Part shown: in pieces, positions 11,397-57,763 of the stretch
How positions within the stretch are numbered: position 1 is the stretch's first letter
Layout: each line of letters starts with the position of its first letter
Assembly: GCA_020724585.1 (NCBI GenBank)
Contig: DYGS01000001.1
Location: 559,027 to 623,026 of the forward strand
Direction of reading: 5' to 3'
Length of the DNA: 64,000 bases
From: Candidatus Microgenomatus sp.
GTDB taxonomy: Bacteria; Patescibacteriota; Microgenomatia; UBA8517
Made by a program: the position numbers and the translations under genes
The notes under the pieces: model-generated
Told to the model about the DNA's origin: nothing
Database searches by the model: none
What the model saw: only the letters and a program-made list of their open reading frames with translations

Positions 11397-12121
11397 TGTT
11401 TTTTTGTTTTTGACTTAGCATTTAGATTTTTAGCATTTGAATTTTTGCCTTCAAGAATGGCTTGTTTGATATAATCCAAAACCAAATGAAGTGCTTTTGT
11501 AGCATCGTCGTTCATGGGGATTGGATAATCAATTAAAGTCGGATCAGAATTGCTGTCAACGATCCCAATAACAGCCACTCCTTTTCTTCTTGCCTCTCTT
11601 ATTGCCGTTGCTTCTTTTTTAATATCAACAACAATTAAAATGTCGGGAACTTTAGTGAGAGAAACTATGCCTCCAAAAAATCTTTCAAGTCTTTCAATCT
11701 CTCTTTCTATTAAGATTCTCTCTTTTTTTGTATATTTAGCATAAAAACCTGATGCTAATTTCTCTTTAAGATCGGATAATTTATCAATTGATTTTTTAAT
11801 CTGAGAAAAATTTGTGATTGCCCCGCCCAACCATCTTTCGGTAACAGTAGCTATTCCGGTTTCTTTATGTATTTCAAGTGCTTTATCTTTGGCCTGCTTT
11901 TTGCATGCAACCAAAAGTACGGTTTTCCCGTCCTTAACTGATTGTGTTAAAAAATTAAGAGCTTCTTCAATTGCAGCTTTTGTTTTTGGAAGATCAAAAA
12001 TATGCACGCCATCTTGAGCGCCATATATAAAATCTTTAATTTTTGGGTTCCACCTTTTGGATTGATGGCCAAAATGAGCACCGCTTGCCAATAATTCTTC
12101 TAAATCAATATTAACTGCCAT
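11393..12121 (-). CDS. rpsB: 30S ribosomal protein S2
   Basis: LLASGAHFGHQSKRWNPK and full S2 pattern. C-terminal tail carries the in-frame repeat NSNAKNLNAKSK. Confidence 0.9.
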   Translation of the reverse strand: MAVNIDLEELLASGAHFGHQSKRWNPKIKDFIYGAQDGVHIFDLPKTKAAIEEALNFLTQSVKDGKTVLLVACKKQAKDKALEIHKETGIATVTERWLGGAITNFSQIKKSIDKLSDLKEKLASGFYAKYTKKERILIEREIERLERFFGGIVSLTKVPDILIVVDIKKEATAIREARRKGVAVIGIVDSNSDPTLIDYPIPMNDDATKALHLVLDYIKQAILEGKNSNAKNLNAKSKTKKQ

Positions 12122-12219
12122 ATTTGATAATTCTCTCTTGACCTTCCATATACTTAAAGTAAGCTTCAGAGAGTTAAAGTATATGTGATTTGTATGTATT
12201 TTAGACTAGTTTCTAATTT

Positions 12220-13011
12220 CTAGCAACTAGCAACTAAATTTTCAGCCAAACAGGAAATTGTAACTGGTCCAACCCCACCTGGGACAGGGGTAATAAAAGA
12301 TGCTTTATTCTCGCATCTTGGATCAATATCTCCAAATGGACTACCTACATCGATTAAGATAGCATCGTTTTTAACCATATCATCACTAATCAAATTAGCA
12401 ACACCTACTGCTGATATTAAAACCTGACCTTTAAAGGTTACACCCTTAAAGGGTGTTGTTTTGTCATATTGATTTACTACATATCTCATTTTTTGAAGTT
12501 TTTTAACCAGTGGCTTTCCAACCATACCAGAAGCACCAACTACATCAATTTCCTTTACTAACTTCTTTGTTTCAAAAAGTGCAAGCTTTAAAATTTCAAG
12601 GATTGCTTTAACAGTAGGTGGAATAAACTTACTATCTTCCCTCATTCCATCAACATCTTTAGTCAGTGCAATTGAATTTATAATTTGTAATTTGTAATTT
12701 GTAATTTTCGCCGGAAACGGAAGTTGGATCATTATTCCATTTACTGTTTTATCCTCGTTTAAAGATTTAATAAGACTTAAAACTTCACTTTTTTCTACAT
12801 TTTCAGGTAATCGATATATATCAAGTTCTGCTCCTATTTCTTCGATGTATTTTTTCTTCAAATTTACATACAAAATACTAGCAGTATCATTTCCAACTAA
12901 AATAGTTGCCATTTTAGGATACTTTCCTTTTTCTTTTAAGAGTTTTACATCACTAGTAAGTAATGTTTTCTTTTTAAGTGAATACGATCTACCGTCAAAA
13001 ACCACAGCCAT
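12220..13011 (-). CDS. folD: bifunctional methylenetetrahydrofolate dehydrogenase/cyclohydrolase
   Basis: MAVVFDGRSYS start (track ORF extends to 13056), IMIQLPFPAKI, KDVDG, PVPGGVGPVT. Carries the in-frame repeat KITNYKLQIINS. Confidence 0.85.
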   Translation of the reverse strand: MAVVFDGRSYSLKKKTLLTSDVKLLKEKGKYPKMATILVGNDTASILYVNLKKKYIEEIGAELDIYRLPENVEKSEVLSLIKSLNEDKTVNGIMIQLPFPAKITNYKLQIINSIALTKDVDGMREDSKFIPPTVKAILEILKLALFETKKLVKEIDVVGASGMVGKPLVKKLQKMRYVVNQYDKTTPFKGVTFKGQVLISAVGVANLISDDMVKNDAILIDVGSPFGDIDPRCENKASFITPVPGGVGPVTISCLAENLVASC

Positions 13012-13056
13012 ATTAGTGTATAATATCAAAACTCTGCCAAGAAAACTAACATACAT

Positions 13057-14217
13057 ATGTCGGGGGTTGAAACTTTTCGAAAACGGATTATTGAAACTTG
13101 TTTACCTGATCAACTTGAAAGATATCGGATTATACAACGTCAAATTCAAATGGCAACCGCGGCGTTTATGGAACCGAATCCATATGGAAAAAGAGATGCT
13201 ACAAGTGGACTCGGTAGTTGGTTTGTATGGCAATCACATCAACCATCATCGGTTGCAAATAAAATTGATCCGAATGATCCATTTGCTAAAACTGCAATGT
13301 TAATCGGGGCTATCAGTTTGAGAGCGTGGATTTATAAAAGCGACATTGATGGTTGGCACAACATTAGCACTTCAGATGTCTGGAAACGTACTCCACTTCA
13401 TGATTTAGCATCTAAATGTGACGAAATTGTTGCGGAAATTGTACCAGAGACAAAAGGTCGATTTGTTGGTATCAACCTGAAAGAGATGGCGGATAGACAT
13501 AAAGAGGGAATCCATAATAATGCAAATGAACACATAGTCGTTACAGGCCTAAATGCAGTTGGAAAAACAACAGTCTTAAATATTTTTTCAAGTTATTTAG
13601 CCAACTGCAACATCGGAGCAAAAGTTATAAAAATGCCAAGACCTGATGGACCGGTTTCAAAAGTAATTCTTCCAGCGCTAAACGGTGAACTAGGAATAGC
13701 CAAAGACGCACTTCAAATGGTCTTCTTAGCAGATGCACTAGATTTTGAACCTGAACCCGAAACATTAATCGTGTTTGATAGACATCCAATTGCTTCCGAA
13801 GCTTTTGTATATGGACCGGAAGAAATTGCAAGAACAGTGTTATCTACCCAAGAAATCAGAAATCAAATATTTCAAACTTTTATACTTGACCAACACCCTA
13901 TGTCATGCGCAAGGAGGGTTGCGGAAAGATCAACAGCCCCAAGGATTTTTGAAAACGATGTCGAAAAAATGACAGAACAACTAATAAGATTTGCGCGGCT
14001 AACAATGCTACCAGGAACTCACTGGATAAATAACGATATTCCTAATACTGGTGATTACTCTAATTACAAGCCCGAATTAATTGCAGCTGAAAGATTTATT
14101 GGTTCAGTATTTCATAGCGGAGTATTACAACGCAGACTCTTAAAGCAAGGAAGATTTACAAATTATTCAGAGGCATCTTCATTCCTTTATAATAAGGCTC
14201 ACACTTATATGAATTAA
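13057..14217 (+). CDS. thymidylate-kinase-like P-loop nucleotide kinase domain with a ~150-aa N-terminal extension of unknown function
   Basis: Walker A VVTGLNAVGKTT. TMK/dNK-type DRH motif LIVFDRHPIASEAFVYG (cf. TMK LCDRYxDSSLAYQG). ATG start verified. Locally higher GC than neighbours. Confidence 0.6.
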   Translation: MSGVETFRKRIIETCLPDQLERYRIIQRQIQMATAAFMEPNPYGKRDATSGLGSWFVWQSHQPSSVANKIDPNDPFAKTAMLIGAISLRAWIYKSDIDGWHNISTSDVWKRTPLHDLASKCDEIVAEIVPETKGRFVGINLKEMADRHKEGIHNNANEHIVVTGLNAVGKTTVLNIFSSYLANCNIGAKVIKMPRPDGPVSKVILPALNGELGIAKDALQMVFLADALDFEPEPETLIVFDRHPIASEAFVYGPEEIARTVLSTQEIRNQIFQTFILDQHPMSCARRVAERSTAPRIFENDVEKMTEQLIRFARLTMLPGTHWINNDIPNTGDYSNYKPELIAAERFIGSVFHSGVLQRRLLKQGRFTNYSEASSFLYNKAHTYMN

Positions 14218-14244
14218 TATCAAAAAAAACTTGCAGGAAGAAAA

Positions 14245-14331
14245 TTACTTTATTTTGTAAAAAAATTCACGACCAACTACAAACAAAACAGAAATACTTA
14301 CTATTAGTGCCAGTATTGCTAATAAATTCAT
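14245..14331 (-). CDS. small single-TM peptide, 28 aa (MNLLAILALIVSISVLFVVGREFFYKIK)
   Basis: Manual translation; ATGA overlap with preceding peptide; stop TAA at 14247..14245. Confidence 0.25.
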   Translation of the reverse strand: MNLLAILALIVSISVLFVVGREFFYKIK

Positions 14332-14444
14332 TTTCTTTTTTTTATTCTTCTTCCTTTGATAAAGTAGTAAAAAAATCCAAGAGCAAAAAGGCCGCTTACA
14401 ACTACCGCAAAATAATATGTATTTTCAAAAGTCCAGTATTTCAT
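14328..14444 (-). CDS. small single-TM peptide, 38 aa (MKYWTFENTYYFAVVVSGLFALGFFYYFIKGRRIKKRK)
   Basis: Manual translation. TAATG coupling to upstream ORF and ATGA coupling to downstream ORF; basic C-terminus. Confidence 0.3.
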   Translation of the reverse strand: MKYWTFENTYYFAVVVSGLFALGFFYYFIKGRRIKKRK

Positions 14445-14644
14445 TATTCTTCAATCAATAATAACAAAGATAAAGCCAAAAACACAAATGTCATAAAAAT
14501 TCCATACATAAAAAATGATAAGCCAATAAAATTTGAGCTTGAAGACACGAAAAATGGAGATATAACACTAGCTGTGAACCAAGCAACTGCCAACGTGTTA
14601 AAGAATAAGGACAATGAATCTATTTGTTTGGAATTTAATCTCAT
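14444..14644 (-). CDS. small two-TM membrane protein (66 aa from ATG; track ORF starts at TTG 14668)
   Basis: Hydrophobic helices. Stop TAA overlaps the next small ORF's ATG (TAATG). Confidence 0.35.
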   Translation of the reverse strand: MRLNSKQIDSLSLFFNTLAVAWFTASVISPFFVSSSSNFIGLSFFMYGIFMTFVFLALSLLLLIEE

Positions 14645-14686
14645 TACTAAAATTGTATCACTTTTCAAAAACTTGCAAGAAGAAAA

Positions 14687-15595
14687 TTATTCTTGAATCA
14701 ATCCCATTTTCCTTACTTTTTCAACCATCTCTTGAATTTCCCTTTTATTCGTTAATCCTGCATTTTTTGCTCTTTGTTCAATTTCTTCGGAAGAAAAATG
14801 CACATTTCTTGCAAGTAACATGTCTCTAAGTGTAGTAATTTCAAATTCGTTAATTTTAACAGCATTTAATTGATATTCTTCAAATGCTTGCCAGGTAATT
14901 GGAACTGAATCTTTGACAATATTGGCCATCGCCTCTGCATGTACCCTAATTTCATACTGTGCATGTTTGTCCATTCTTAAATTAAGTAAATGAAGAATAT
15001 TATGTAAATCGCACTTCCAATACCATTCCGTATAAACTGCGACAGGTAATGGTAACCGAGCAATCTCTCTTGCCAACCCAGCTCCAATATCTTCATCCAA
15101 AAGCCATAAATATAAATCATGTGAATTTCTGAAATGTGTTCTTAATTTATCTTGCACCTCTTGTGCTAAACTAGGATCTACTTCTGGACCACGTCCCTGC
15201 TTATTATCTGAAGACTGTACAGAAATAACGCCTGCTTCAGGTATATAGAACTCATCTCTTACAACTGAATATCTAGCAGAATATTCATTTAAGCTTGCGG
15301 TTCTATGTCGAACCCATTGCCTTGCTACAAATAACGGCATTTTTTGATGGAACTTGAATTCAACCATTTCGAATGGAGAAGTGTGTTCATGTCTTAATAA
15401 GTATCTAACTAAACCTTTTGTTTCATTAATCTTCCTTGTTTCTTGGCCATACGAAATCCTTGCCGCACGTTCTATATCAACATCGCCACCCATATAATCA
15501 AGCAAATTAACAAAGCCATGGTCTAATACTGGCACCGTGACATCAATCCATTTCTCTGCTCCTTCATTAATTGGTCGTCTTGTTAAATATTCCAT
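14687..15595 (-). CDS. thyX: flavin-dependent thymidylate synthase
   Basis: ThyX signature RHRTASLNEYSARY (RHRxxSxxxxSxRY). Confidence 0.9.
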   Translation of the reverse strand: MEYLTRRPINEGAEKWIDVTVPVLDHGFVNLLDYMGGDVDIERAARISYGQETRKINETKGLVRYLLRHEHTSPFEMVEFKFHQKMPLFVARQWVRHRTASLNEYSARYSVVRDEFYIPEAGVISVQSSDNKQGRGPEVDPSLAQEVQDKLRTHFRNSHDLYLWLLDEDIGAGLAREIARLPLPVAVYTEWYWKCDLHNILHLLNLRMDKHAQYEIRVHAEAMANIVKDSVPITWQAFEEYQLNAVKINEFEITTLRDMLLARNVHFSSEEIEQRAKNAGLTNKREIQEMVEKVRKMGLIQE

Positions 15596-16456: not shown

Positions 16457-17485
16457 ATGATAATTGGTATTACTGGTACATCTGGCGCGGGCAAAGGAAC
16501 TGTAGTTGAGTATTTAACGCAAAAAGGTTTTAAACATTATTCCGTAAGTGACTATTTAAGAGAATATCTTCAAAAGCAGAAAAGAGAGATAAATAGAATA
16601 AATCTTCAAGACGTTGGGAATGAACTTCGTAAAAAACATGGACCTGAGTACGTAGTTAAGAAACTTTATTTAAGAGCAAAAAAAGAAAGTATAAAAAGTA
16701 TAAATAGCATTATTGAGAGCATTAGAAATCCAAAAGAAGCTGAATTTTTAAAACAAAACGGAGCTATTTTAATTGCAGTTGAAGCAAAACTTGAAACAAG
16801 ATATAAAAGAATTAAAAAAAGAGCTTCAGACAAAGATTTTGTAACATTGAGGGAATTCAAAGCCCAAGAACAAAGAGAATTTCAAAATAGTGATAAAAAT
16901 TCTCAAAATATTCCAGAATGTATTAAACTTTCTGATTTTAAAGTGAACAATAACGAAAGTGTAAAAAAACTACAAATTCAAATAGGTAAAATAATAAACA
17001 CAAAAAAAGATAAATATGTTCGCCCTTCTTGGGATGAATATTTCGTTGACATTATGGTTGCCGCCTCAAAACGTGCAACATGCGATAGAGGCAGAGCTTC
17101 ATGTGTGTTTGTTAAAGATAAACAAATATTAGTAACAGGGTATGTTGGTTCCCCTGTTGGTTTTCCACATTGCGATGAAGTAGGACATCTTATGAAAAAG
17201 GTAATTCATGAAGATGGACACATAACTGAACATTGTATGAGGACAGTGCATGCTGAACAAAACGCAATATGCCAAGCTGCAAAACGAGGTGTTAGTCTTG
17301 ACGGTTCAACTTGTTATGTAAACATGACACCCTGTAGAACTTGTGCAATGCTTCTTATCAACTCAGGTATTAAAAGAGTCTATGCAGTAAACAAATATCA
17401 TGCAGGCGCTGAATCTGAAGAAATGTTTAAAAAAGCAAAAGTAAAATTAATTTTTAAAAATACTGAGGTTGTTAAATATAAATAA
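16457..17485 (+). CDS. fusion protein: N-terminal P-loop (deoxy)nucleoside/nucleotide kinase domain + C-terminal dCMP deaminase
   Basis: Walker A IIGITGTSGAGKGT. Deaminase motifs HAEQNAI and PCRTCAMLL (H-A-E...PCxxC zinc ligands). ATG verified. Confidence 0.8.
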   Translation: MIIGITGTSGAGKGTVVEYLTQKGFKHYSVSDYLREYLQKQKREINRINLQDVGNELRKKHGPEYVVKKLYLRAKKESIKSINSIIESIRNPKEAEFLKQNGAILIAVEAKLETRYKRIKKRASDKDFVTLREFKAQEQREFQNSDKNSQNIPECIKLSDFKVNNNESVKKLQIQIGKIINTKKDKYVRPSWDEYFVDIMVAASKRATCDRGRASCVFVKDKQILVTGYVGSPVGFPHCDEVGHLMKKVIHEDGHITEHCMRTVHAEQNAICQAAKRGVSLDGSTCYVNMTPCRTCAMLLINSGIKRVYAVNKYHAGAESEEMFKKAKVKLIFKNTEVVKYK

Positions 17486-18969: not shown

Positions 18970-20943
18970 TTACTTTTCTTCTTTCTTGGGTAGTTTCCAT
19001 GTAGCATATTTACATTTTGGATAGTTACTGCATCCGTAAAACTTGCCTCTTTTTGATTTTTTAACTATTAATTCTCCAGTTTTGCACTCAGGACAATTAA
19101 ATCCAGTTTTTTCAACAAATTTTTCAATATATTTACAATCTGGGAACTTATCACAACTGATAAACTTACCAAACCTCCCAACCCTAATAACTAACTCTCC
19201 CTCTTTGCAGTCTGGACATTTTCTACCAATCTTCTCTGTCTCAATTTTTACTCTGTTTGCATTTTTTTCAACAATCTCAATTTTTTTTGAAAATGGCCCC
19301 CAAAACTTTTTCATTTCATCTTGCCACTTTATTTCACCTTTTGATATTCTATCCAAATCATCTTCCATTTCTGCGGTAAATTTATAATCAAGTTCCTCTG
19401 GAAAGTTTTTAACTAAAAATTCAGTTACTGCAAAACCAACTGTTGTTGGAACAAAGGCTTTTTCTTGTTTTTCTACATAACCTCTTGCCTGAATTGTTGA
19501 AATGATTGGTGCATATGTTGAAGGTCTACCAATTCCCAACTTCTCAAGTGTTTTAATTAAAGAAGCTTCATTATACCTTGCAGGAGGTAATGTAAACTTT
19601 TGTTCTCCCCAAACTTTTTCTTTTGCAAGACTTTCATTTTCTTTTAACTGAGGCAATATAATAACTTCTTTGTCAATTGAGAATAGTTTCCTCCAACCAT
19701 CAAAAATCATTATTTGTCCGCCTGATCTAAGTAGATGTTTTTTGCTGTTTTCTGTTTCGCTTTCAACATCAATTATTGTTTCACTATAAATTGCCGGTTT
19801 CATCTGACAGGCAACAAATCTTTTCCAAATCAGCTCATATAATTTTTGTTGTGCTTGTTCTAATTTAGCATTTAGCATTTGTAATTTAGCATTGACGGCC
19901 GTAGGCCGTATCGCCTCATGTGCTTCCTGCACATTTTTACTTTGCTTTTTAAAGTAGTTTGGTTTTTCAGGAAGATAATTTTCCCCATATTCTTTCTCTA
20001 TAAAATCCCTGACATTATTAATTGCTTGTATGGATATATTTACTGAGTCAGTTCTGTGATATGTGATAAGTCCCTCTTCATATAATTTTTGTGCAACACT
20101 CATTGTTCTTTTTGCACTCCAGCCAAAAAGTCTTGCTCCAGTTTGTGTTAATGTAGAAGTTGTAAATGGTGGATATGCACTCTTTTTAACTTCTTTTTTA
20201 CTAATTCTTAAAACTTTAAATTTTGAATTTTCCAAATCAGATATTACACTATCTGCGTCCTTTTTATTATTAATACTTTCTTTGATTAAAGTGGTAGTAA
20301 TTATCTTGTTTTTGTCTTCACTTGAATAAAGTTTTGCAAATATTTCCCAGTACTCTTCTGGTTTAAATTTTTTAATTTCATCTTCTCTTTCAACTATTAA
20401 ACGAACTGCAACAGATTGGACACGCCCTGCAGATAAACCTCTTCTAACTTTTTTCCAAAGAAGTGGCGACAATTTATATCCCACCAACCTATCCAATACC
20501 CTTCTAGCAATCTGCGCATCAACTAAATTTTGATTAACAACAGTAGGGTGACTTATTGCTTCTTCAACAGCCTTTTGTGTTATCTCATGGAAGCTTATGC
20601 GTTTCAATTTATCATTTGTAATTTGTAATTTGGCATTTGCAAGCATGTCTCTAACATGCGAAGCGATGGCTTCTCCCTCGCGGTCCGGATCGGTCGCAAT
20701 AAAAACTTGCTCGGCTTTCTTAGATTTAGACTGTAAATTTTTCACTATAGCTTTTTGTTTTTCAATAATTTGATAGTCTGGTTTAAAATTATTCTCAATA
20801 TCAATTGAAAGCCGGCTTTTAGGAAGGTCCATAATGTGCCCACGAGTGGAATCAACTAAATACTCGCTACCTAAAAATTTAGATAGTGTCTTGGCCTTTG
20901 TCGGACTTTCTACAATTATTAAATTCATAATTACTTGCCTCAA
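18970..20943 (-). CDS. topA: DNA topoisomerase I
   Basis: Toprim IVESPTKAKT, active-site region, C-terminal Zn ribbons (CPDCKEGELV..., CPECKTGELI...). Carries two in-frame repeat insertions (ANAKLQITNDKLKR; AVNAKLQMLNAKLEQ). Confidence 0.9.
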   Translation of the reverse strand: MRQVIMNLIIVESPTKAKTLSKFLGSEYLVDSTRGHIMDLPKSRLSIDIENNFKPDYQIIEKQKAIVKNLQSKSKKAEQVFIATDPDREGEAIASHVRDMLANAKLQITNDKLKRISFHEITQKAVEEAISHPTVVNQNLVDAQIARRVLDRLVGYKLSPLLWKKVRRGLSAGRVQSVAVRLIVEREDEIKKFKPEEYWEIFAKLYSSEDKNKIITTTLIKESINNKKDADSVISDLENSKFKVLRISKKEVKKSAYPPFTTSTLTQTGARLFGWSAKRTMSVAQKLYEEGLITYHRTDSVNISIQAINNVRDFIEKEYGENYLPEKPNYFKKQSKNVQEAHEAIRPTAVNAKLQMLNAKLEQAQQKLYELIWKRFVACQMKPAIYSETIIDVESETENSKKHLLRSGGQIMIFDGWRKLFSIDKEVIILPQLKENESLAKEKVWGEQKFTLPPARYNEASLIKTLEKLGIGRPSTYAPIISTIQARGYVEKQEKAFVPTTVGFAVTEFLVKNFPEELDYKFTAEMEDDLDRISKGEIKWQDEMKKFWGPFSKKIEIVEKNANRVKIETEKIGRKCPDCKEGELVIRVGRFGKFISCDKFPDCKYIEKFVEKTGFNCPECKTGELIVKKSKRGKFYGCSNYPKCKYATWKLPKKEEK

Positions 20944-20970: not shown

Positions 20971-21549
20971 CTACATTAGGTTAATCAGATCAATTGGCGA
21001 AATTACTGAAACTGCGCCCTCTCCTATCAACCAGTCAGTTGCTTCACTCCCTGGAACAGCATAAACATCTACCCCTTCATTTGCTGCGTGATTGGCGGTT
21101 GAAATTGTACCACTTCTCTTTAAGCCTTCAATAACAAGAACTGCTTTTGATAGCTTCACAATTAATTGATTACGAGCAAGAAAATTTTTTCCAATCGGCT
21201 TGGTTCCATTTGGAAATCCTGATACTACTGCACCATTTTTAATAATACTATAGTATAGTTCTTTATTTTCATACGGGTAAATGACATCAATACCCGACCC
21301 CAAAACCGCAATTGTCCTTCCGCCGCTATCAATTGCAGTTTTATGAGCAATCGTATCAATACCCCTTGCCATGCCAGAAATTATTGTAAATCCATTTTTA
21401 ACCAATTCTTGAACAAACTCTTCCGTTAGTTTTTTACCGCGAGTGCTTGGCATTCTTGTTCCAACAACAGCAATAGCCTTTTTATCTTCTTCTTTTAACT
21501 TTCCTAAAATATAGAGATCAGTGTTTGTTTTCAATTTAGCATTTAGCAT
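20971..21549 (-). CDS. dprA: DNA processing protein DprA/Smf (Rossmann core only)
   Basis: IAVVGTRMPS...GMARGIDTIAHKTA motif; N-terminus MLNAKL derived from the repeat. Confidence 0.8.
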   Translation of the reverse strand: MLNAKLKTNTDLYILGKLKEEDKKAIAVVGTRMPSTRGKKLTEEFVQELVKNGFTIISGMARGIDTIAHKTAIDSGGRTIAVLGSGIDVIYPYENKELYYSIIKNGAVVSGFPNGTKPIGKNFLARNQLIVKLSKAVLVIEGLKRSGTISTANHAANEGVDVYAVPGSEATDWLIGEGAVSVISPIDLINLM

Positions 21550-21552
21550 TTG

Positions 21553-23058
21553 TCATTTAGCATTTCCAAAGTATTCATCCATTATTTTTCTTGCAATTGG
21601 ACCTGCAACCTTACTTCCTTCACCTGATTTTTCAACCATTACGGTCAAAAACATCAGCTCATTGCTCGGCTTCTTCTCATCTTCGATATTATATGCAACA
21701 AACCATGCATGCGTTTTATTATCTTCATTTGTCTCAGCAGTCCCAGTTTTACAAGCAATATCAATATCCGCTGTTTTCTCTTTAAAGTCAAAAAATGTAT
21801 ATCCAGTTCCCCCAGGCAGACATGTCTTTTTCATACCATCTTCTACAAGTTTTATATTTTCATTTTTAAATCCCAAATCAATACATTTGGTCTGACCCAC
21901 TATTTTTAAGTTGCAAAGTTTACCTCCATTTGCAATCATCAAATCCGCCCTGTGTAAAGAAATTGGAGTTAATGCCAAGTCACCCTGACCGATTGAAAAA
22001 TGGTAAGTATTACCCAAAAACCATCTTTCACCCTTAACCCTTTCTTTCCAGTCCGGTGATGGAATTAAATTTAGAACTTCACCTTTTATATCGATCTCTG
22101 TCGTCTTAGTTAACCCAAATTTTTTCAATCCATCTATCAATTTATTTATTCCTACCAATTCTCCAACTTTGTAAAAAAATGTATCTGTTGATCTGGCGAT
22201 GGCCCTTGTCAAGTCAATTTCCGCTTCAACTCCGCCATATTGTGTGTAATACCAATTTGTGTATGAATAATTGCCATAGGGGCTCTCAATTGTAATTACA
22301 CCCGTATCATTAAATATAAAATCTTTATCAATTTTGCCCTCTTCCAAGGCAATCAAAGCAACCACGGGCTTAAAAACTGATCCTGGATGATAAAGTCCCC
22401 CTATAGCCCTATTTAAAAGTGGCAGATTTTCGTCATTTAACGCAGGCAATATATTATTCGCATCGTAGGATGGAGAAGAAAAAAGAACTAAAATTCGCCC
22501 CGCTTTGTCAGTTATAATTACAGTGCCCGTTTTATCCTTCATTTCCTCAGCCGCTTTTTTTTGCAGATTGTAATCAATATTGGTTTTTATATCCTGTCCT
22601 GCAATTGGTTCTCTTCTACCAATTATTCTTATTTTTTCTTGTCTGCTATTAACCTCAATTAACTCTTCCCCGTCGATTCCTGACAAAATGCAATTGTACT
22701 CTTCCTGCAGCCCTCCGCGGCCAACTATTTGACCAAGTCTGTAGGCACCCTTTTCAATACACTTAGGATCAACCTTTCCAACCTCTTTTTCGTTAACTTC
22801 TGCAAGATAACCTGTTATGTGAGAAAAATCAGACCCTGATAAAATCTCACCGCCTCGGGCATAAATATTTCCTCTTCTGGCAGGAATTTTAACTCTTTCA
22901 ATCCGATTGCCTTCAGATAAACCCCTGTAATAATCTCCTTTTATTATTTGAAGTTCAAAAAGTCTTGATATCAAAACCAAAAAACCCAACAACAAAATAC
23001 CTCTTAAAAACCACAAAAACCAAGATTCATTATTTTCTATCCCCGCAAGACTTTGCAT
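21553..23058 (-). CDS. mrdA: penicillin-binding protein 2 (elongasome transpeptidase)
   Basis: SVFKP (SxxK), SYTN-like, KTGTAE; immediately downstream of mreB. Confidence 0.8.
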   Translation of the reverse strand: MQSLAGIENNESWFLWFLRGILLLGFLVLISRLFELQIIKGDYYRGLSEGNRIERVKIPARRGNIYARGGEILSGSDFSHITGYLAEVNEKEVGKVDPKCIEKGAYRLGQIVGRGGLQEEYNCILSGIDGEELIEVNSRQEKIRIIGRREPIAGQDIKTNIDYNLQKKAAEEMKDKTGTVIITDKAGRILVLFSSPSYDANNILPALNDENLPLLNRAIGGLYHPGSVFKPVVALIALEEGKIDKDFIFNDTGVITIESPYGNYSYTNWYYTQYGGVEAEIDLTRAIARSTDTFFYKVGELVGINKLIDGLKKFGLTKTTEIDIKGEVLNLIPSPDWKERVKGERWFLGNTYHFSIGQGDLALTPISLHRADLMIANGGKLCNLKIVGQTKCIDLGFKNENIKLVEDGMKKTCLPGGTGYTFFDFKEKTADIDIACKTGTAETNEDNKTHAWFVAYNIEDEKKPSNELMFLTVMVEKSGEGSKVAGPIARKIMDEYFGNAK

Positions 23059-24144: not shown

Positions 24145-26098
24145 GATTGCTCTACTTTTTAACACATTATTTGCATTTATTCCACTTATATTTTTTAAAA
24201 ACACATCCGAGCTATTCGAATTTAACAAAATTGTAGTTATCTATATCTTTACAATTTTAATAACAGCCGCTTGGATTATTAAAAGCATATTGGCCAAAAA
24301 AATTATATTTCGTCGCACAATATTGGATATTCCCCTAGCTCTTTATCTTTTTATTTTATTGCTTAGTTTGTTGTTTTCAATCGACTCAAGAACATCCTGG
24401 CTTGGTTATTACTCAAGGTTTAATGGCGGTTTGGTTTCCCAAATTTGTTATGCCCTATTATATTGGGCATTTGTCTCCAACATGACTGCGAAGCAGTCGC
24501 TATTCGCTATTCGCTATTCGCTATTCGCTGCCACAATAGCTTCGCTATTGGCGGTCTTAGAGCATTTTGGAATTTTTACTACCTGCAAACTATTAGGATT
24601 TAATCTATATGAATCCTGCTGGGTACAAGATGTACAAAATAGAGTTTTTTCAACACTTGGCCAACCCAACTGGCTAGCTGCACTTATAGTCGCGTTGCTC
24701 CCAATGACATGGTTATTAATGCTAACTGTTAAAAAAATAGATGCTAAATATTTATCATTTACATTTTTGTCATTTATTTTTTTTATAACGCTTTTATTTA
24801 CAAAATCCAGATCGGGTCTACTAGCTTTTGGGGTCGAGGCAATAATCTTTTGGGGACTCGTTTTTTGGCAAACTAAACTCAAATACTCAAAGAAATTTTT
24901 AACAATATTTTTTTCTTCTCTGATCTTATTTATCTTTTTTAACTCACCGCTTACAACTCTCGACTCGACTCAAAAAATTTCAACCGGTACAACTCTTGAA
25001 ACGGGCGGGACAGAATCTGGCGTCATTAGAAAATATGTCTGGATCGGAGCTATAAATGTGTTTAAAAATTACCCAATTTTGGGTAGTGGACCAGAAACTT
25101 TTGCCTATGTCTTCCCTAAATTTAAACCAATCGAACATAATTTAACATCGGAGTGGGACTACATCTACAACAAAGCACACAATGAATATTTGAATTATTT
25201 GGCGAATACAGGGCTTTTAGGCTTATTATCTTACCTCTTTATAATTGGATCTATACTTAAATTATTTATTCAAAAACTTTCAATTACAAATTACAAATTA
25301 CAAATTACAAATAATTTAGAATTTAGAATTTATAATTTAGCATTGATGTCTGGCTTTGCCAGCATACTTATTACTAACTTTTTTGGCTTTTCAGTAGTTA
25401 CTACATCCCTCCTATTTTTCCTATTTCCAGCGCTGGCAGTAGTAAGCAGTACACAGAATGTAGAATGGCAAAAAACTAATAGATTAACGATTTATCAAAT
25501 TTTAGCAACCATTGTAGTTTTACTTACTACTTACTACTTACTACATACTACATACTACTACTGGAGGGCGGATATTCATTATAACAAGGCTAAAAATAAT
25601 GGCGGTGAACAAGAAATAAATGAAGCTCTTAAAATTTCCCCAAATGAACCACTTTATATTGCAGAGCTTGCCTTCATAAATCAAGATGCTAACTTGGCGG
25701 CAAAGGCTCTTGACCTAAATCCATACGATCAAAATATTAGAAATATATTAATAAGTACCTTAATCAAAAACGCCTCTGCAGAAGCTAACTATCTTTTAAT
25801 AGCTGAGAAAATTGCAGAGGAAGGAACACTTGTAGCTCCTCAAAATCCAAAGATTTTTTACCAATTAGCACTTCTCAATTTAAAGAATAACAAAATTCAA
25901 GAAAGTTTAAAGAATTTTGACAGAGCAATCAAACTTAAACCTAATTATAAAGAAGCCTATTTTGCCAAAGGATTAACTTTAATTGACTTAAAAAGGTATG
26001 GCGAAGCCATCACTGCATTACAATACATTTTAGATAAAATTGATCCAAACGACGACTTAACTAAAAAATATCTTCAAGAAGCTGTATCGATGTTTTAA
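24143..26098 (+). CDS. O-antigen ligase-like (Wzy_C) polytopic membrane protein with C-terminal TPR repeats
   Basis: Motifs GQPNWLAALIV, FTKSRSGLLAF, NKAHNEYLNYLANTGLLG; TPR-like C-terminus. Contains a 7-nt tandem repeat (24498-24529) and the in-frame repeat SITNYKLQITNN (25281-25345). Confidence 0.7.
   Translation: MIALLFNTLFAFIPLIFFKNTSELFEFNKIVVIYIFTILITAAWIIKSILAKKIIFRRTILDIPLALYLFILLLSLLFSIDSRTSWLGYYSRFNGGLVSQICYALLYWAFVSNMTAKQSLFAIRYSLFAATIASLLAVLEHFGIFTTCKLLGFNLYESCWVQDVQNRVFSTLGQPNWLAALIVALLPMTWLLMLTVKKIDAKYLSFTFLSFIFFITLLFTKSRSGLLAFGVEAIIFWGLVFWQTKLKYSKKFLTIFFSSLILFIFFNSPLTTLDSTQKISTGTTLETGGTESGVIRKYVWIGAINVFKNYPILGSGPETFAYVFPKFKPIEHNLTSEWDYIYNKAHNEYLNYLANTGLLGLLSYLFIIGSILKLFIQKLSITNYKLQITNNLEFRIYNLALMSGFASILITNFFGFSVVTTSLLFFLFPALAVVSSTQNVEWQKTNRLTIYQILATIVVLLTTYYLLHTTYYYWRADIHYNKAKNNGGEQEINEALKISPNEPLYIAELAFINQDANLAAKALDLNPYDQNIRNILISTLIKNASAEANYLLIAEKIAEEGTLVAPQNPKIFYQLALLNLKNNKIQESLKNFDRAIKLKPNYKEAYFAKGLTLIDLKRYGEAITALQYILDKIDPNDDLTKKYLQEAVSMF
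24498..24529. repeat. heptanucleotide tandem repeat (CGCTATT)x4 inside the O-antigen ligase-like gene
   Basis: Direct reading; encodes SLFAIRYSLFA. Confidence 0.8.
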
Positions 26099-40020: not shown

Positions 40021-40111
40021 GGGTGTCGTTCAATGGTAAGCAGAGCTTGGCCATTGAACTAGTTAGATGTTCAATGGTAAACAGAGCTTGGCCATTGAAC
40101 TAGTTAGATGA
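40021..40111 (+). repeat. tandem duplication of the tRNA-Trp 5' segment: [GGGTGTC][GTTCAATGGTAA(G/A)CAGAGCTTGGCCATTGAACTAGTTAGAT] x2; each unit forms an 8-bp-stem hairpin TTCAATGG...CCATTGAA
   Basis: 40021-40038 identical to tRNA positions 40114-40131; unit repeated at 40028 and 40069. Confidence 0.8.
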
Positions 40112-40182
40112 AAGGGTGTCGTTCAATGGTAGGACATCGGTCTCCAAAACCGATAATGATAGTTCGATTCTATCCACCCTTG
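40112..40182 (+). tRNA. tRNA-Trp (anticodon CCA)
   Basis: Acceptor AAGGGTG/CACCCTT, D arm GTTC..GGAC, anticodon stem TCGGT/ACCGA with loop CTCCAAA, T arm GATAG TTCGATT CTATC, discriminator G. Confidence 0.75.
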
Positions 40183-40433
40183 CAAGAAAAGAAACACGCT
40201 CGGACAGGGTCGCCCCTGCCGGCGGGCGACCAAACAAAAAGAGCGAATTGAAGCCATTTTTGAGTACTGGTTTGAGGTGGCGGTTCTCCAAAAAGAAGTT
40301 CGATCCGGCGTTTTTTGCATGATTGGCTAAATCATGCAAATTATTTTTTGCGCGCGCGATTTTTGCCCCTGTTTTCGCGATTTTGATAAGTTCTAAAAGA
40401 GGTTCGAGTCTCCTTCCACCATTTTGATTAAAT

Positions 40434-52617: not shown

Positions 52618-52637
52618 TGTAAATCACACCGAGGAAT

Positions 52638-53171: not shown

Positions 53172-53193
53172 TTTGAAATGGGGTGATTAATTT

Positions 53194-53583: not shown

Positions 53584-53603
53584 CTGAATAGACATTATGA
53601 GAA

Positions 53604-53632
53604 ATCACAGGGTTGCACCCTGTGATTTTTTG
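53604..53632 (+). terminator. rho-independent terminator after rplL (ATCACAGGG-ttgca-CCCTGTGAT + TTTTT); also overlaps the stop of the convergent GNAT gene
   Basis: Perfect 9-bp stem, 5-nt loop, T5 tail. Confidence 0.7.
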
Positions 53633-54108
53633 TGGAGTTCCATTAAATAGGCATTGTAGTAATTTTCCCCTACCTTAAATTCTTTTTTCATCTCGCCTAC
53701 AATTTCAAAGCCACAAGATTTATATAGATTAATTGCATTTGTTTGACTTGTGTTTACAATTAATTTTAATTTAACAACTTTTGGATTTGAAAAGGCTTCT
53801 TCAATCCTTTTTTCAAACAACATTCTGCCCAACCCCTGACCTCTGTACTCTTTTTTAACATATATTCCGCTTAAACGGGCAATATGAGAAAATTTTTTTG
53901 CCTTAGCATATTTGATAGAGCCAATTCCAACAAGTTCACCACCCATATATGCTCCATACCAAACTTGATATCTTTTGTTCAATTTTTCTTTTTTTAATTC
54001 ATTTAATGAGGTTCCAAAAGCCTGAGGTTCATTTTGCAGTGCCTCTAATCTAATCTTTTTAAATTCGTCTAAATTGTTAAGATTTAGTTTTTGTAAATTT
54101 TTCTGCAT
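53605..54108 (-). CDS. GNAT-family N-acetyltransferase
   Basis: Acetyl-CoA binding motif A RGQGLGRMLFEKRIEEA; 167 aa; 32-nt overlap with the upstream ATP-grasp gene. Confidence 0.75.
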   Translation of the reverse strand: MQKNLQKLNLNNLDEFKKIRLEALQNEPQAFGTSLNELKKEKLNKRYQVWYGAYMGGELVGIGSIKYAKAKKFSHIARLSGIYVKKEYRGQGLGRMLFEKRIEEAFSNPKVVKLKLIVNTSQTNAINLYKSCGFEIVGEMKKEFKVGENYYNAYLMELHKKSQGATL

Positions 54109-56422
54109 TTATTTTTATCTCTTCATTAATATTAATGATTTCTAAGTTAGTAATACCTTCTGGTAAATAGCTTTGATATTTCTTGGCATCTTCTACATTT
54201 TTTGTATACACAAAAAGTGTATCTATATTTTCATCTCTCATTTTACTTCCAAAGAATAAAATATCATTTTTAATATTTTCATCTTTTTTAATATAAGTTG
54301 ATAGCCAATATGATTTATTGGCTATTTTTGGAGTAAAACCTAGTTTTGATTTATATAGAATTAAACCACTACTTAAATCAGTTCCGTAAAAATTAGTATC
54401 TTGTCCAAATGAAATTTCCTCATAATTTTTACTTAATGCATATTCTATAAATTTATAATCCATCAAAAGCATATTTTCACCCCATGCATATCCAATTCCT
54501 AAAATTTTATTTGTCTCAAAAAACAATTCTCCACCGACCAATTTTCCATCTTGGTATGTAAATACCCCACTAATTTTCTTACCTTTTTTATTTTTTGCTT
54601 CTAACCAACTTAAGGTAATTTTAGATTCAGTTTTAAACTTATTTTTTAAGTAATTTTTATATCCTTCAAACCATTCGCTATATAAATTACTATCTATTTC
54701 CTTAATAATCTTTACATCTAGTCCTAGTTTTAAATCATGTTTAATATGATCCCTTGTTTTGCTGGATTTAATATGTTCCAGTGCACTTTTACTTTTATCT
54801 AATTTCTTTCGCCATGCAATTTTATATGGCCTTCTTATTCCTTGTCCTTGATCTATATAAGTATTAACCAGATCTGCTGTTTCCAAATCTATTGACTTTT
54901 TGGCATTTTTAATTCTTTTAACATATAAATTATTTAACCCTCCTTCCTTTTTAAGCCCCATCTCAATTTCAACAAGTCCCAGCATTTTATAAACAAACTC
55001 TATAGCTTTAGCATTTTGTGGTAAAACATTTCCATTTTTATCTACCATCTGACCTCTTAGGATAAACCTGAGCATTCGCTCATGTGGATCATAAACATTT
55101 CCAGATCTTTTATTTACATCCTCCGTTATTAAAAATTCACCATTCTGCTCCAGATGCCAACTTGCATAACCTTCTCGTAAAAATTCTAGCTTGTCATCAG
55201 CTAGCTTATACACACCCGCTTTAATAACTTTTGTATCAACTGAAGAACTATTTACATTGTTGTACATTACAAGTTGACTAGCGTTATACTTTTGTTTGTA
55301 TGTTTTATCTATCTCTTCAAAATTAATTTCATACGGAATATCTAAATGTTCCAAATTATGAAAAACTTGAAATGGTATAGTACCTTTTTCCATTTGCAAC
55401 ATAAGTATTAATGGAAATGCGTCTGTTTCTCTTGGATTACATTCAACTGGCCAAACCTCACCGTCTTTATCAACAATTAAATCAATTCCAAAAATACCTT
55501 TGTAGCCTTGACTATAAATATAATCACCAAACTTTTTAGCAATATGATCTGCCTGTTTTTGGCTTTTTTCACTAAATTCATTAACTACCCAATCATGACC
55601 TGAATAAACACCACTTCTATTATTAAGTTTTGCGTTAACTTCAGGCACATCAACAAGTTGTGTTTGGATAGAACCAACAAAAGTGCCATATTTAGTTGCA
55701 CAGCAAGGAACACTTGAGGAAATACCAGTTATAAAAGGTGCCACATTTACGGATCTAATTTCTTTTTCTGTATCTTTTAGTTTATCAAATAATTCAAGTG
55801 TTCTTGTTTCATATTTTTTATAATCTTCTTCATTTTCAATAAAAAATGTTCCTGTTCCACCACCCCAAGTTGCTTCCGCAATTTGTAAAACTATCTTTTC
55901 TACATTATATTTTTGTTTATACTCCTCAATTATTTTGTAATTTAAATCTTTAATTTCGTAATTTTCCCCTGGTATAGTTTTAACTCCTAATTCACGGAGA
56001 AGTTCTTTAAAATATTTTTTGTTCTCATATTTATCTCTAACATTTCTTTTATTTCCTACAAAATCCCAACCATTTTTTTCTAAGGTTTCCTCAAACTTTC
56101 CCATTGATTTGTAAACAACAAATTTGAAAGGTTCTTTAATTTCACTTAAAAACTTTTTGGCTAAATCTGTTGAGATAATATTTCCTGGCGTAATCGGAGA
56201 AATTTGAACATATTTATCAATTTGCTTTTGTGAATAGACACTAAAACCATCTTGCCTTATATACTCATTGTCTTGGCAATCATTAGCAACTAAATTTTTA
56301 AACTTTGGAAAATAAAAATCATTAATTATTCTCGGCCAAGCAGAAGGCCCCAATCCCACCAGAAGTGGAGCTTTACTAATTGCATTTTCAATTGATTTGG
56401 GAAGTTTTGCAATTTTAAACAT
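54077..56422 (-). CDS. fusion protein: N-terminal ATP-grasp amide ligase domain + C-terminal FemAB/GNAT-like (aminoacyl-transfer) domain
   Basis: ATP-grasp C-terminal signature GIFGIDLIVDKDGEVWPVECNPRETD. C-terminal ~300 aa with Fem-like pattern (GVFTYQDGKLVGGELFFETNKILGIGYAWGEN...KSKLGF). Confidence 0.55.
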   Translation of the reverse strand: MFKIAKLPKSIENAISKAPLLVGLGPSAWPRIINDFYFPKFKNLVANDCQDNEYIRQDGFSVYSQKQIDKYVQISPITPGNIISTDLAKKFLSEIKEPFKFVVYKSMGKFEETLEKNGWDFVGNKRNVRDKYENKKYFKELLRELGVKTIPGENYEIKDLNYKIIEEYKQKYNVEKIVLQIAEATWGGGTGTFFIENEEDYKKYETRTLELFDKLKDTEKEIRSVNVAPFITGISSSVPCCATKYGTFVGSIQTQLVDVPEVNAKLNNRSGVYSGHDWVVNEFSEKSQKQADHIAKKFGDYIYSQGYKGIFGIDLIVDKDGEVWPVECNPRETDAFPLILMLQMEKGTIPFQVFHNLEHLDIPYEINFEEIDKTYKQKYNASQLVMYNNVNSSSVDTKVIKAGVYKLADDKLEFLREGYASWHLEQNGEFLITEDVNKRSGNVYDPHERMLRFILRGQMVDKNGNVLPQNAKAIEFVYKMLGLVEIEMGLKKEGGLNNLYVKRIKNAKKSIDLETADLVNTYIDQGQGIRRPYKIAWRKKLDKSKSALEHIKSSKTRDHIKHDLKLGLDVKIIKEIDSNLYSEWFEGYKNYLKNKFKTESKITLSWLEAKNKKGKKISGVFTYQDGKLVGGELFFETNKILGIGYAWGENMLLMDYKFIEYALSKNYEEISFGQDTNFYGTDLSSGLILYKSKLGFTPKIANKSYWLSTYIKKDENIKNDILFFGSKMRDENIDTLFVYTKNVEDAKKYQSYLPEGITNLEIININEEIKINAEKFTKTKS

Positions 56423-56425
56423 AAT

Positions 56426-57763
56426 CTATGCCCATTTAACTTTAACTAATTTATCTTTTTCAATTTCAGGGCTAACTAAAAAACCCTGCAGATCAGTTCT
56501 TCCTATCAATATACTGTAACGAAGTAATTTTCTATCTGCAACCGTAACTTTTGTTTGCATCTTTTTACCAGCAAGTTTTAAAATTACCTCCAAAACGGGT
56601 CTTTCTTCCTCTCCAAGCGATGATAATTTTTTTCTTGTTGTAATTATCTTATTTTTCTTTAATAGACCAAGTTTTTTAGCTACCCCTACATCGATAGCAG
56701 ATGACCATGCACCGGTATCAATCTTCGCTAAAAACTTTTTCCACTTTCCAAATTGATCCTTAATAAATACATCTTCAACTGCCTTTACTACTGGAGTCTC
56801 CTCTCTAAATTTAACCCTATCGGAAAATTTACCGGCAAAAAGAGCTTTAGAAATTTTTATCCCGTGAGAAACATTTATAACTGCCAAATCATCTATCCTC
56901 TCAAGCCTTTTTTTTAATCCTTCATTATTAGCAAGTTGGATAGATAGACCGGGCTGGGCATTTAACTCAATTACCATGGGGCCTTTTTCAGGATGAAGCA
57001 CAATATCAATACCTGCATATCCTAAACCTGATGCCATTTGAGCCTTGACAGCCGTTTCCAAAATCAAATTCCATTGAGGTATTTTTATGCCGTTTAATTT
57101 GCGCAAAGTTCCAGGTTTGAACACAATTTGTCTGTTGTGTTGGATAGCATTTGTGGTTATTCCATAAGCCAAATCAATCCCCAACCCCAATGCTCCCTGA
57201 TGAAGATTGGCCCTTCCCCCTGATTCTTTAGTTGGAAGCCTAAGCATTGCCATTACAGGAATTTTATTAAAGACAATTATTCTAATATCCGGTGTTCCCC
57301 TGTATGCATATTTCCTAAAAACTTTATGTCTGCCTACATATTCTTGGATAAAAGCAACATCAGGTTCATTTCCTATTGAATAAGCCCCCTCTAAGATATC
57401 CAAACAATGCAATTTCAAATCCTCTGCATTAATTTTAATTTTTGAAGATGTCATCCAATTTATCATTTGTAATTTATCATTTGTAATTTTAAGTCGTTTC
57501 TTAACGACGATGATTCCTTCTCCGCCCAAACCTCTTGAAGGTTTGACTGCAAATGAACTGGGCAAACTCTCCCAATTAAAATTATCAACATCGGAATATT
57601 TTTTGAATTTTGCTAAAACTTTTGGATGTGCAATTTTATTTTTCTTCAAAACTTTATATGTCTGTAATTTAGAATTGGCGATCTTTTTTGCCTCACGAGA
57701 GTTATACTTTGCTGTATAAAGCGTATTTCTGGCATTTAAACCCAAAATTGAAGAAATTTTCAT
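56426..57763 (-). CDS. fusion protein: RimK-related alpha-L-glutamate-ligase-like ATP-grasp + C-terminal retropepsin-like aspartyl peptidase (DUF785-like)
   Basis: N-terminal ILGLNARNTLY typical of RimK-related ligases. ATP-grasp core. C-terminal D-T-G-A aspartyl protease motif KIDTGAWSSAIDVG. Carries in-frame repeat LKITNDKLQMINW. Confidence 0.6.
   Translation of the reverse strand: MKISSILGLNARNTLYTAKYNSREAKKIANSKLQTYKVLKKNKIAHPKVLAKFKKYSDVDNFNWESLPSSFAVKPSRGLGGEGIIVVKKRLKITNDKLQMINWMTSSKIKINAEDLKLHCLDILEGAYSIGNEPDVAFIQEYVGRHKVFRKYAYRGTPDIRIIVFNKIPVMAMLRLPTKESGGRANLHQGALGLGIDLAYGITTNAIQHNRQIVFKPGTLRKLNGIKIPQWNLILETAVKAQMASGLGYAGIDIVLHPEKGPMVIELNAQPGLSIQLANNEGLKKRLERIDDLAVINVSHGIKISKALFAGKFSDRVKFREETPVVKAVEDVFIKDQFGKWKKFLAKIDTGAWSSAIDVGVAKKLGLLKKNKIITTRKKLSSLGEEERPVLEVILKLAGKKMQTKVTVADRKLLRYSILIGRTDLQGFLVSPEIEKDKLVKVKWA

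Follow-up and report, generated by a model that had tools for sequence, protein, structure and literature searches.

Why should unrelated essential genes of one bacterium encode the same short peptide? The question arises from a 64,000-nucleotide (nt) stretch of contig DYGS01000001.1 (assembly GCA_020724585.1, Candidatus Microgenomatus sp., positions 559,027 to 623,026), called the window below. An original prediction, made from the letters alone, had described there an AT-rich repeat of tandem heptamers that lies in frame in genes such as topA and folD and encodes the motif NAKLQITNDKL. The arrays are real: they form a family of heptanucleotide repeats that lie in frame and are a feature of the DNA. 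With moderate confidence, we regard them as heptanucleotide simple-sequence repeats (SSRs), a form of "cryptic simplicity," that are made and homogenized in place by slipping or templating in a 7-nt register and are filtered by selection.

Homologues of TopA and of the ATP-grasp ligase identify the host, a groundwater bacterium with a tiny genome of 0.74 Mb, as a member of the Woesebacteria (Microgenomates; Candidate Phyla Radiation, CPR, or Patescibacteria). The window has ~35% GC, its GC skew is negative along the entire length, and ~86% of it is coding according to a crude tiling of open reading frames (ORFs). An Rfam search of the window returned four tRNAs and no other RNA family.

Period-7 arrays in unrelated genes

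Three tandem copies of the heptamer AAATKVY, with at most one mismatch, matched the window 21 times, and these overlapping matches collapse into seven arrays at six loci (Table 1): topA (two arrays), folD, the gene of an ATP-grasp ligase, the gene of a Wzy-like ligase, and the junction between the pbp2 stop and the dprA start. Shuffled sequences gave 0.04 matches. The AAATKVY pattern was drawn from the same data, and hence motif-free tests were run as well. A self-match scan found 11 arrays at period 7 and 0 to 3 at every other period from 4 to 12, compared to ~0.2 in codon-block shuffles, and the tetramer AAAT recurred 19 times at period 7 and 0 to 2 times at each of the periods 5, 6, 8, 9, and 10. 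Of the tandem periods in the window, 7 alone is enriched. According to Tandem Repeats Finder (TRF) and the motif-free scan, head-to-tail iteration of 7 nt extends over 4.4 to 5.6 copies at 10 loci, and equally strong arrays are built from unrelated units, namely, TCGCTAT and TACTTAC within wzy and ACTTGAC between genes. The arrays are not predominantly intergenic: 10 of the 12 period-7 arrays lie in coding sequence, which is close to the coding fraction of the window. In viral contigs, both the period-7 pattern and a period-8 control were saturated, so that the special status of period 7 is not claimed across databases.

Pfam, homologues, and translations confirmed the host genes and peptides as they had been named in the original prediction; the genes checked by Pfam and homologues encode TopA, FolD, an ATPgrasp_ST/Zn_protease protein, a protein with Wzy_C and TPR, DprA, the PBP2 transpeptidase, and RpsB. 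The proposed list of instances was too long, however. The seven arrays at six loci stand, and the C-terminal tail of rpsB, which is lysine-rich and of variable length, has only two separated AAATGCT units. Three proposed weaker copies (16975-16998, 10195-10225, and 62795-62830) are noise without a period-7 signal.

Table 1. Heptamer arrays and related features; positions refer to the window unless another locus is named, and units are read on the strand given (aa, amino acids).
Feature	Position	Strand	Units	Encoded peptide or remark
folD array	12673..12707	-	AAATTAC x3, AAATTAT, AAATTCA	KITNYKLQIINS, aa 102-113; start of helix after QLPFP
topA site 1 array	20604..20638	-	AAATGCC, AAATTAC, AAATTAC, AAATGAT, AAATTGA	ANAKLQITNDKLK, aa 97-109
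topA site 2 array	19860..19894	-	CAATGCT, AAATTAC, AAATGCT, AAATGCT, AAATTAG	VNAKLQMLNAKLE, aa 345-357
pbp2/dprA junction array	21531..21565	-	AAATGCT, AAATGAC, AAATGCT, AAATGCT, AAATTGA	
Wzy-like (O-antigen-ligase/TPR) forward array	25281..25315	+	CAATTAC, AAATTAC x3, AAATAAT	SITNYKLQITNN, aa 380-391
Wzy inverted array	25311..25345	-	CAATGCT, AAATTAT, AAATTCT, AAATTCT, AAATTAT	abuts forward array
ATP-grasp (ATPgrasp_ST + Zn_protease) array	57455..57489	-	AAATTAC, AAATGAT, AAATTAC, AAATGAT, AAATTGG	KITNDKLQMINW, aa 92-103
Wzy array, unrelated unit	24497..24529	+	TCGCTAT x4.7, 100% pure	SLFAIRYSLFA, aa 119-129
Wzy array, unrelated unit	25521..25558	+	TACTTAC x5.6	LLTTYYLLHTTYY, aa 460-473
Intergenic heptamer array (sole one)	4085..4115	-	(ACTTGAC) x4.4	directly upstream of ATG at 4076, hypothetical gene
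rpsB C-terminal tail	11412..11446	-	AAATGCT x2, spaced 15 nt	TRF period 15; weak/degenerate, no period-7 array
AAATKVY family in frame, leucyl-tRNA synthetase of a Patescibacteria metagenome-assembled genome	L019 2787-2850			KFQITNSKLQINSKLQIQNSKF
AAATKVY family in frame, 325-aa ORF	L103 5547-5578			GKITNDKLQMTNF
AAATKVY family in frame, 746-aa ORF	L059 535-559			KCQITNDKL

Unit number, reading phase, and the shared peptide

How does a heptamer array stay in frame? The original prediction held that three units make 21 nt and always keep the frame. This is wrong, since every array of the AAATKVY family consists of exactly five units (35 nt); the arrays built from other units measure 31 to 38 nt. 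The frame is kept because an array either replaces an equal length of the gene or adds a net multiple of 3 nt.

The shared peptide follows from the period and from the choice of units. A heptamer array runs through all three codon phases in every 21 nt, and hence each frame gives the same cyclic peptide. Because the arrays cycle through all phases and one unit family dominates (AAATTAC, AAATGCT, and AAATGAT), unrelated proteins gain a common cyclic sequence, N-A/D-K-L-Q-I/M-T. (AAATTAC)n is open in sense (KLQITNY) and contains TAA in antisense, and the arrays are therefore oriented along the coding strand. Each of the units AAATGCT, AAATGAT, AAATTCT, AAATTAT, and AAATTAG gives a stop codon in one phase and is found only in the permitted phases, and the units in phase 0 are always AAATT(A/G)x. 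Hence, the recurring unit order that reads NAKLQITNDKL is due to this rule of stop avoidance and not to a master copy. In the inverted array of wzy, which encodes NLEFRIYNLA on the plus strand, TAT sits where a pure AATTTAG array would give an in-frame TAG.

The original prediction had argued for a feature of the DNA rather than functional conservation of a peptide, and two arrays bear this out. The one at the pbp2/dprA junction contributes the stop codon of pbp2 (TGA) as well as the start codon of dprA (ATG) (in relatives this junction is of similar length, variable, and without periodicity), and the one in wzy occurs in both orientations. The forward and inverted arrays of wzy have arms of 33+33 nt that are 76% complementary and make up the sole palindromic locus, whose predicted RNA fold of -6.5 kcal/mol is no better than that of shuffled sequences (z = -0.24). 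The wzy gene has four arrays in all, two of them 100% pure, and the 8-mer TCGCTATT of its TCGCTAT array recurs ~20 nt downstream, in the codons of a conserved ASLLA. A contig of an independent Logan assembly (SRR5011275, locus L130) stops at 25311/25312, the center of the forward/inverted array.

Comparison with orthologous loci

We compared the syntenic loci of six other Woesebacteria (L002, L004, and L125 to L128), whose TopA proteins are 64 to 81% identical. Periodicity was scored as the fraction of positions i that match i+7 in the best 35-nt window of each site, with a background mean of 0.41 and a 95th percentile of 0.61 (Table 2). The arrays are sharp in the present genome, weaker in L002, L004, L127, and L128, and at background level in L125 and L126, where scans of 12.7 kb and 22 kb, respectively, found 0 arrays.

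Table 2. Period-7 scores at orthologous sites; cells are empty where there is no value.
Site	This genome	L002	L004	L125	L126	L127	L128
TopA site 1	0.79	0.68	0.68	0.39	0.29	0.64	0.57
TopA site 2	0.68	0.68	0.82	0.46	0.43	0.39	0.61
FolD aa102	0.89	0.79	0.54	0.32	0.46	0.75	0.32
Wzy aa119	0.96	0.43			0.50	0.43	0.39
Wzy aa460	0.96	0.71			0.46	0.57	0.39

Several arrays have changed the sequence of their gene and not its length. The folD array leaves the length unchanged relative to six orthologues and retains the conserved Y-K..I-I..I residues; the site is also periodic in L002 and in L127, where the unit is AGATTCT. The same holds for two arrays in wzy. The array at aa119 is of unchanged length relative to four orthologues, retains L..I.Y.L, and has a periodicity specific to this genome, and the one at aa460 retains both length and conserved residues; at this site, L002 has a degenerate copy in the same register, and the TA....C periodicity of L127 is weak. 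True expansions are confined to loops. With the ATP-grasp array, a hairpin turn that has 3 residues in most of 120 orthologues is longer by 7 aa (21 nt), and KNQKLQ-type inserts occur at the same turn in other lineages. The Wzy loop at aa380 is 18 aa longer than those of L126 and L127. Insertion relative to orthologues, one of the two outcomes that the original prediction had expected from such an alignment, is thus found in the ATP-grasp turn and the aa380 loop and not in FolD or at aa119 and aa460 of Wzy.

Both TopA arrays lie in variable regions of the alignment. Site 1 is a loop of variable length, placed by an AlphaFold2 model (mean predicted local distance difference test score of 69.6) between the helix 83-96 and the strand 108-111; here, the period-7 signal is at or above the 95th percentile in L002, L004, and L127 and just below it in L128. 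Site 2, a coil and short helix in the same model, exceeds most orthologues by 2 to 3 aa and has orthologous arrays in the same register in L002 and L004. The register is thus the same in three genomes, with units in L004 (AAATTCG/AAGTTCG) that turn K-L-Q into K-F-E. Of 120 TopA orthologues, 7 have the peptide of the family at site 1 and 15 have it at site 2. P0002, the TopA protein most closely related to that of this genome (81% identity), looks mosaic, its N-terminal ~100 aa being nearly those of the P0006 group and its middle part resembling the protein of this genome, which suggests recombination between lineages of Woesebacteria.

Orthologues with the same peptide at the same positions had been named in advance as a sign of ancestral sequence, and this was found in part: in TopA, FolD, and Wzy of other Woesebacteria, whose TopA proteins are 64 to 74% identical, period-7 arrays recur at the same positions, together with similar peptides. 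Because the sites are shared across divergent Woesebacteria, the arrays are old and have been held in register in some lineages. At the same sites and in the same register, the units differ between genomes (AAATTCG and TCAATAA in L004, AGATTCT in L127), and CTTAGTA and ACTAATC are further units in the arrays of relatives. Units thus turn over within arrays, and their differences in a shared register amount to concerted turnover. Codon identity at identical residues is 78% (40/51) inside the arrays and 55% outside. We dropped this difference as a sign of DNA-level selection, since codon choice strongly favors AAA, AAT, TTA, and CAA and thereby confounds the comparison.

Variation within the species was sought in two further collections. 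In protein clusters at 90% identity, the sequence stands alone, and a flank-anchored pattern with a variable gap gave 0 matches in metagenome contigs, a collection that evidently does not hold the host organism.

Unit choice and occurrence in other genomes

Is AAATTAC simply the heptamer that the codon usage of this genome favors? By that measure, it ranks 18th of 1612 stop-free heptamer classes, and most of the classes above it encode poly-K, poly-F, or Trp-containing peptides. Composition therefore accounts for part of the bias and was rejected as its sole cause because it does not account for the excess of AAATKVY.

Across one genome per species, the matches listed for (AAATKVY)3AAAT include Nostoc and other cyanobacteria, Pyrinomonadaceae, Anaerolineae, Bacteroidales, and several Patescibacteria. 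Among the same matches, the cyanobacterial arrays lie mostly outside long ORFs. In other CPR genomes, the family occurs in frame, for example, in the leucyl-tRNA synthetase of a Patescibacteria metagenome-assembled genome (MAG; locus L019, KFQITNSKLQINSKLQ), and the 746-aa ORF in Table 1 belongs to an Anaerolineae MAG of 60% GC. Our literature search turned up no publication that deals with heptamer repeats in CPR/Patescibacteria or with arrays of heptamers that lie in frame in housekeeping genes.

Other features of the window

The period-7 arrays are clustered, 9 of 12 lying within 13.4 kb (12.2 to 25.6 kb of the window, from folD to wzy). The wzy gene by itself contributes four of these, and the other ~50 kb hold three arrays. 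There is no switch of the GC skew at the cluster. At the stop codon of folD, a short run of CTAGCAA (x2.4; 12220-12236) overlaps the gene end. At its other end, folD (minus strand) and a thymidylate-kinase-like gene (plus strand, 13057-14217) start back to back with a gap of at most ~45 nt (13011-13057), and each promoter must therefore sit within the coding sequence of the other gene.

Upstream of the 170-aa hypothetical gene, which has no Pfam match, three TTGACA (-35-like) boxes spaced by 7 bp are followed by CTAAAAAAT and the ATG (4076-4115). Gain or loss of one unit of the ACTTGAC array would alter the -35/-10 spacing.

Two tandem repeats have longer units. A 24-nt unit (AAAAGTTAGAATCGAAATTAGAAG) is present in 2.9 copies with 95% match at 10018-10086, between an ORF ending at 9947 and one starting at 10269. 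A 41-nt unit occurs twice (97% match) at 40028-40110 and ends directly before the tRNA-Trp gene (40112-40183). This duplication could be an integration scar or an att-like duplication.

How the arrays may arise

We hypothesize that DNA copying or repair misaligns by one 7-nt register, which would both create the arrays and keep them homogeneous. Candidate processes are slipped-strand mispairing and transient out-of-register templating followed by realignment. Because most of the genome is coding (~86%), the misalignment events would land mostly in genes. Selection would then pass outcomes that are free of stop codons in the frame being read and that keep this frame, either by being length-neutral or by adding a net multiple of 3 nt. 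It would also be limited to short arrays of ~5 units and to places that tolerate the encoded residues, such as loops, turns, helix starts, and gene junctions. The slippage origin considered in the original prediction agrees with the fact that period 7 is generic over unrelated units. From these patterns, we infer how the process works at the molecular level and why the register is 7 nt, the size five units, and the bias toward AAATKVY. For the bias, easily melted AT-rich DNA, the use of the most abundant codons, and a well-tolerated peptide are candidate reasons.

Several observations weigh against this explanation. Simple replication slippage does not give perfect arrays at unchanged length. 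Plain slippage is also expected to yield a spread of array lengths, and all seven arrays of the AAATKVY family are of one size. AAATKVY makes up 1.8% of the coding 7-mers yet at least 6 of the 12 arrays, an excess that is overstated by its binomial P of ~3e-8 because the pattern was defined from those same arrays. Moreover, period-7 structure is kept at the same sites despite heavily diverged synonymous sites, and such persistence needs either ongoing homogenization or DNA-level selection. Finally, three other assemblies, 100% identical over 11 to 22 kb, contain no change in copy number. The AAATKVY excess, the five-unit size, and the long persistence thus go beyond what simple slippage explains.

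Alternative explanations

What else could produce such arrays? It is conceivable, if on the whole doubtful, that they are more than passive debris: either a conserved 35-bp signal of five heptads, embedded in the genes of Woesebacteria and other lineages and read by a heptad-binding protein on DNA or mRNA, or the trace of a dedicated enzyme that works in a 7-nt register and rewrites stretches of ~35 nt while leaving their length as it was. A recoding or regulatory signal or a nucleic-acid-binding site, the alternative given in the original prediction, is likewise conceivable.

A more specific version, which we consider unlikely, treats the arrays as functional cis-elements in which a protein reads five consecutive 7-bp heptads (35 bp) on DNA or mRNA. 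Candidates for the reader are a cold-shock-domain protein and a ribbon-helix-helix protein of the type of the pSM19035 omega repressor. The operators of the omega repressor consist of direct and inverted WATCACW heptads, and a cold-shock domain binds ~7 nt. Five direct heptads per array and one pair of direct and inverted heptads reproduce the contiguous arrangement of the omega operators. The units themselves come close: AATTACA and AATGACA are one position off AATCACA, which we take to be an omega heptad, and AATTACA, AATGCTA, and AATGATA match what we take to be the consensus, WATCACW, at 6/7 positions at best, the arrays lying inside genes. Since the genome has almost no spacer DNA, cis-elements would have to be embedded in coding sequence. 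The constant size of five units, the strong family specificity, the persistence at orthologous sites, and the head-to-head pair of direct and inverted arrays all accord with such a signal. So do the units found in frame in other CPR and non-CPR genomes, such as those in the leucyl-tRNA synthetase of L019 and QITNDKL in the ORF of 60% GC from Anaerolineae, and the binding of CspB to heptamer repeats has been discussed (PMC4679880). However, arrays of the same size but of unrelated units (TCGCTAT, TACTTAC) are present in the same gene, orthologous arrays are built from other units (AAATTCG, AGATTCT, TCAATAA), and in L125 and L126, which are close relatives, the same essential genes are free of arrays at all sites. 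The position relative to gene starts is not fixed, and no binding protein was identified, with no search made for a ribbon-helix-helix candidate.

Still less probable is a selfish, mobile, or conversion-driven family of ~35 nt that inserts itself at new sites or reaches them by short-patch ectopic gene conversion and persists wherever the frame is kept. A common composite sequence in unrelated genes, the strong excess of one family, the two real insertions (ATP-grasp and the Wzy loop), and the patchy occurrence among orthologues would all be expected from such an element, and a conversion tract would also give length-neutral replacement. However, the sites are shared across deep divergence and hence are not recent insertions, the reading phase fully explains the unit order and makes a master copy needless, and arrays of unrelated units behave identically. 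A tract of 35 nt presumably also offers too little flanking homology for ordinary recombination. The original prediction had likened the repeat to the Rickettsia palindromic elements; this comparison finds no support in the arrays, which lack termini or terminal repeats as well as target-site duplications and form no stable hairpin.

We give a similarly low probability to phase variation, by which some arrays (the pure Wzy arrays and the TTGACA promoter-region array) would be contingency loci like neuO of Escherichia coli K1 or hmw of Haemophilus influenzae, a change of one unit switching the gene off or retuning a promoter. Wzy, a surface-structure gene according to Pfam, has four arrays, two of them pure, the intergenic array places -35-like boxes ahead of a gene, and neuO is a documented heptanucleotide switch in coding sequence (PMC13001214). 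However, 4 to 5 copies are far below the 3 to 53 copies (20 being commonest) of neuO (PMC13001214), the copy number is the same in all four assemblies, and like arrays are found in topA and folD, genes in which loss of the reading frame would be expected to kill the cell.

It is very improbable that the peptide itself is selected, for example, as a heptad or amphipathic-helix module with the DNA periodicity as a side effect: three heptamers do make a 7-residue heptad, a longer neuO repeat is reported to raise enzyme activity (PMC13001214), and the folD and Wzy arrays keep conserved hydrophobic positions, but protein heptads would yield a period of 21 nt and not 7 nt, one array spans the stop and start of two genes, the inverted array encodes a different peptide, and the hosts (cytoplasmic enzymes and a membrane protein) have nothing in common. 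DNA uptake sequences and CRISPR-like repeats were dropped because the arrays are tandem and without spacers, as were -1 frameshift "slippery heptamers" because there is no X XXY YYZ pattern.

Relation to known repeats

According to the accounts of Mrazek, Guo, and Shah (2007) given in later papers (PMC4679880, PMC4692102), heptanucleotide repeats are the most abundant class of long SSRs in most prokaryotic genomes, and a slippage origin related to the stretch of DNA that the polymerase covers has been proposed. As far as these accounts go, the arrays described here resemble them in having few tandem 7-nt units, an over-represented period of 7, and a unit that varies by locus and species. Unlike the repeats reported from Xanthomonas and Nostoc, which are enriched between genes (PMC4692102), 10 of 12 arrays here are coding, essential genes included. 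They also differ in that several arrays arose without a change in length and in that one unit family dominates.

Individual heptamer systems share some of these features. In neuO of E. coli K1, (AAGACTC)n occurs in 3 to 53 pure copies at the 5' end of an accessory, phage-borne gene that is switched on and off by slippage, and at copy numbers that preserve the frame it is translated into a repeat of 7 residues (PMC13001214). Like neuO, our arrays are heptanucleotide repeats in coding sequence; unlike neuO, they consist of ~5 mosaic copies in the interior of housekeeping genes, with no variation seen in four assemblies. Dispersed heptamers are also known as TAACTGA in Beggiatoaceae, cyanobacteria, and Bacteroidetes (PMC4679880), as GGGAATC in Xanthomonas (PMC4692102), and as the short tandemly repeated repetitive (STRR) heptamers of cyanobacteria. 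These share with the present arrays the small size (2 to 6 copies), one favored heptamer dispersed genome-wide, and occasional inverted pairs. With TAACTGA, stop codons likewise dictate the orientation in ORFs, where the repeat is tolerated only in reverse, as LSVISYQ (PMC4679880). In contrast to our arrays, all three are overwhelmingly intergenic, have been proposed to be regulatory, and have other unit sequences, and no set of in-frame arrays in essential genes has been described for them. The STRR sequences in particular, which lie between genes, are highly iterated, and occur only in heterocystous cyanobacteria, were rejected as an identification because the host belongs to the Woesebacteria and the arrays lie in coding sequence.

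Two further comparisons concern repeats inside genes. The Rickettsia palindromic elements are palindromic, ~100 to 150 bp long, conserved in sequence, and clearly inserted. Both they and the present arrays are DNA-level repeats that lie in frame, at tolerated positions, in unrelated and often essential genes; however, our arrays are 35-nt tandem heptamers, are mostly nonpalindromic, often involve no insertion, and sit at orthologous sites. "Cryptic simplicity" is said to have been described by Tautz, Trick, and Dover in 1986, mainly in eukaryotic genes with frame-preserving unit lengths. Here, too, local slippage-like turnover would make neighboring short motifs alike, coding regions included, but the register is strictly 7 nt and the genes are bacterial housekeeping genes.

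Significance

What does this family add? In published accounts since 2007, heptanucleotide repeats figure as the most frequent type of long simple repeat in bacteria; the cases described lie mostly between genes, and their origin is unexplained. Here, the phenomenon lies within essential genes of an ultra-small CPR genome. Mrazek is said to have reported in 2007 that heptanucleotide repeats occur mainly in larger genomes. Because the arrays sit inside essential genes, the proteins act as a ruler, by which the arrays appear without a change in length, comprise ~5 units, have long been kept in register, and are shaped by the avoidance of stop codons. Any mechanism is thereby constrained to a templating step that is out of register by 7 nt and to a patch of ~35 nt.

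There are also two practical warnings. Identical 11-residue peptides in unrelated CPR proteins can be artifacts of DNA repeats, and heptamer arrays can break assemblies. If a dedicated rewriting enzyme were indeed at work, it would represent an undescribed form of templated mutagenesis, and it could explain why heptamers dominate among the long SSRs of bacteria.

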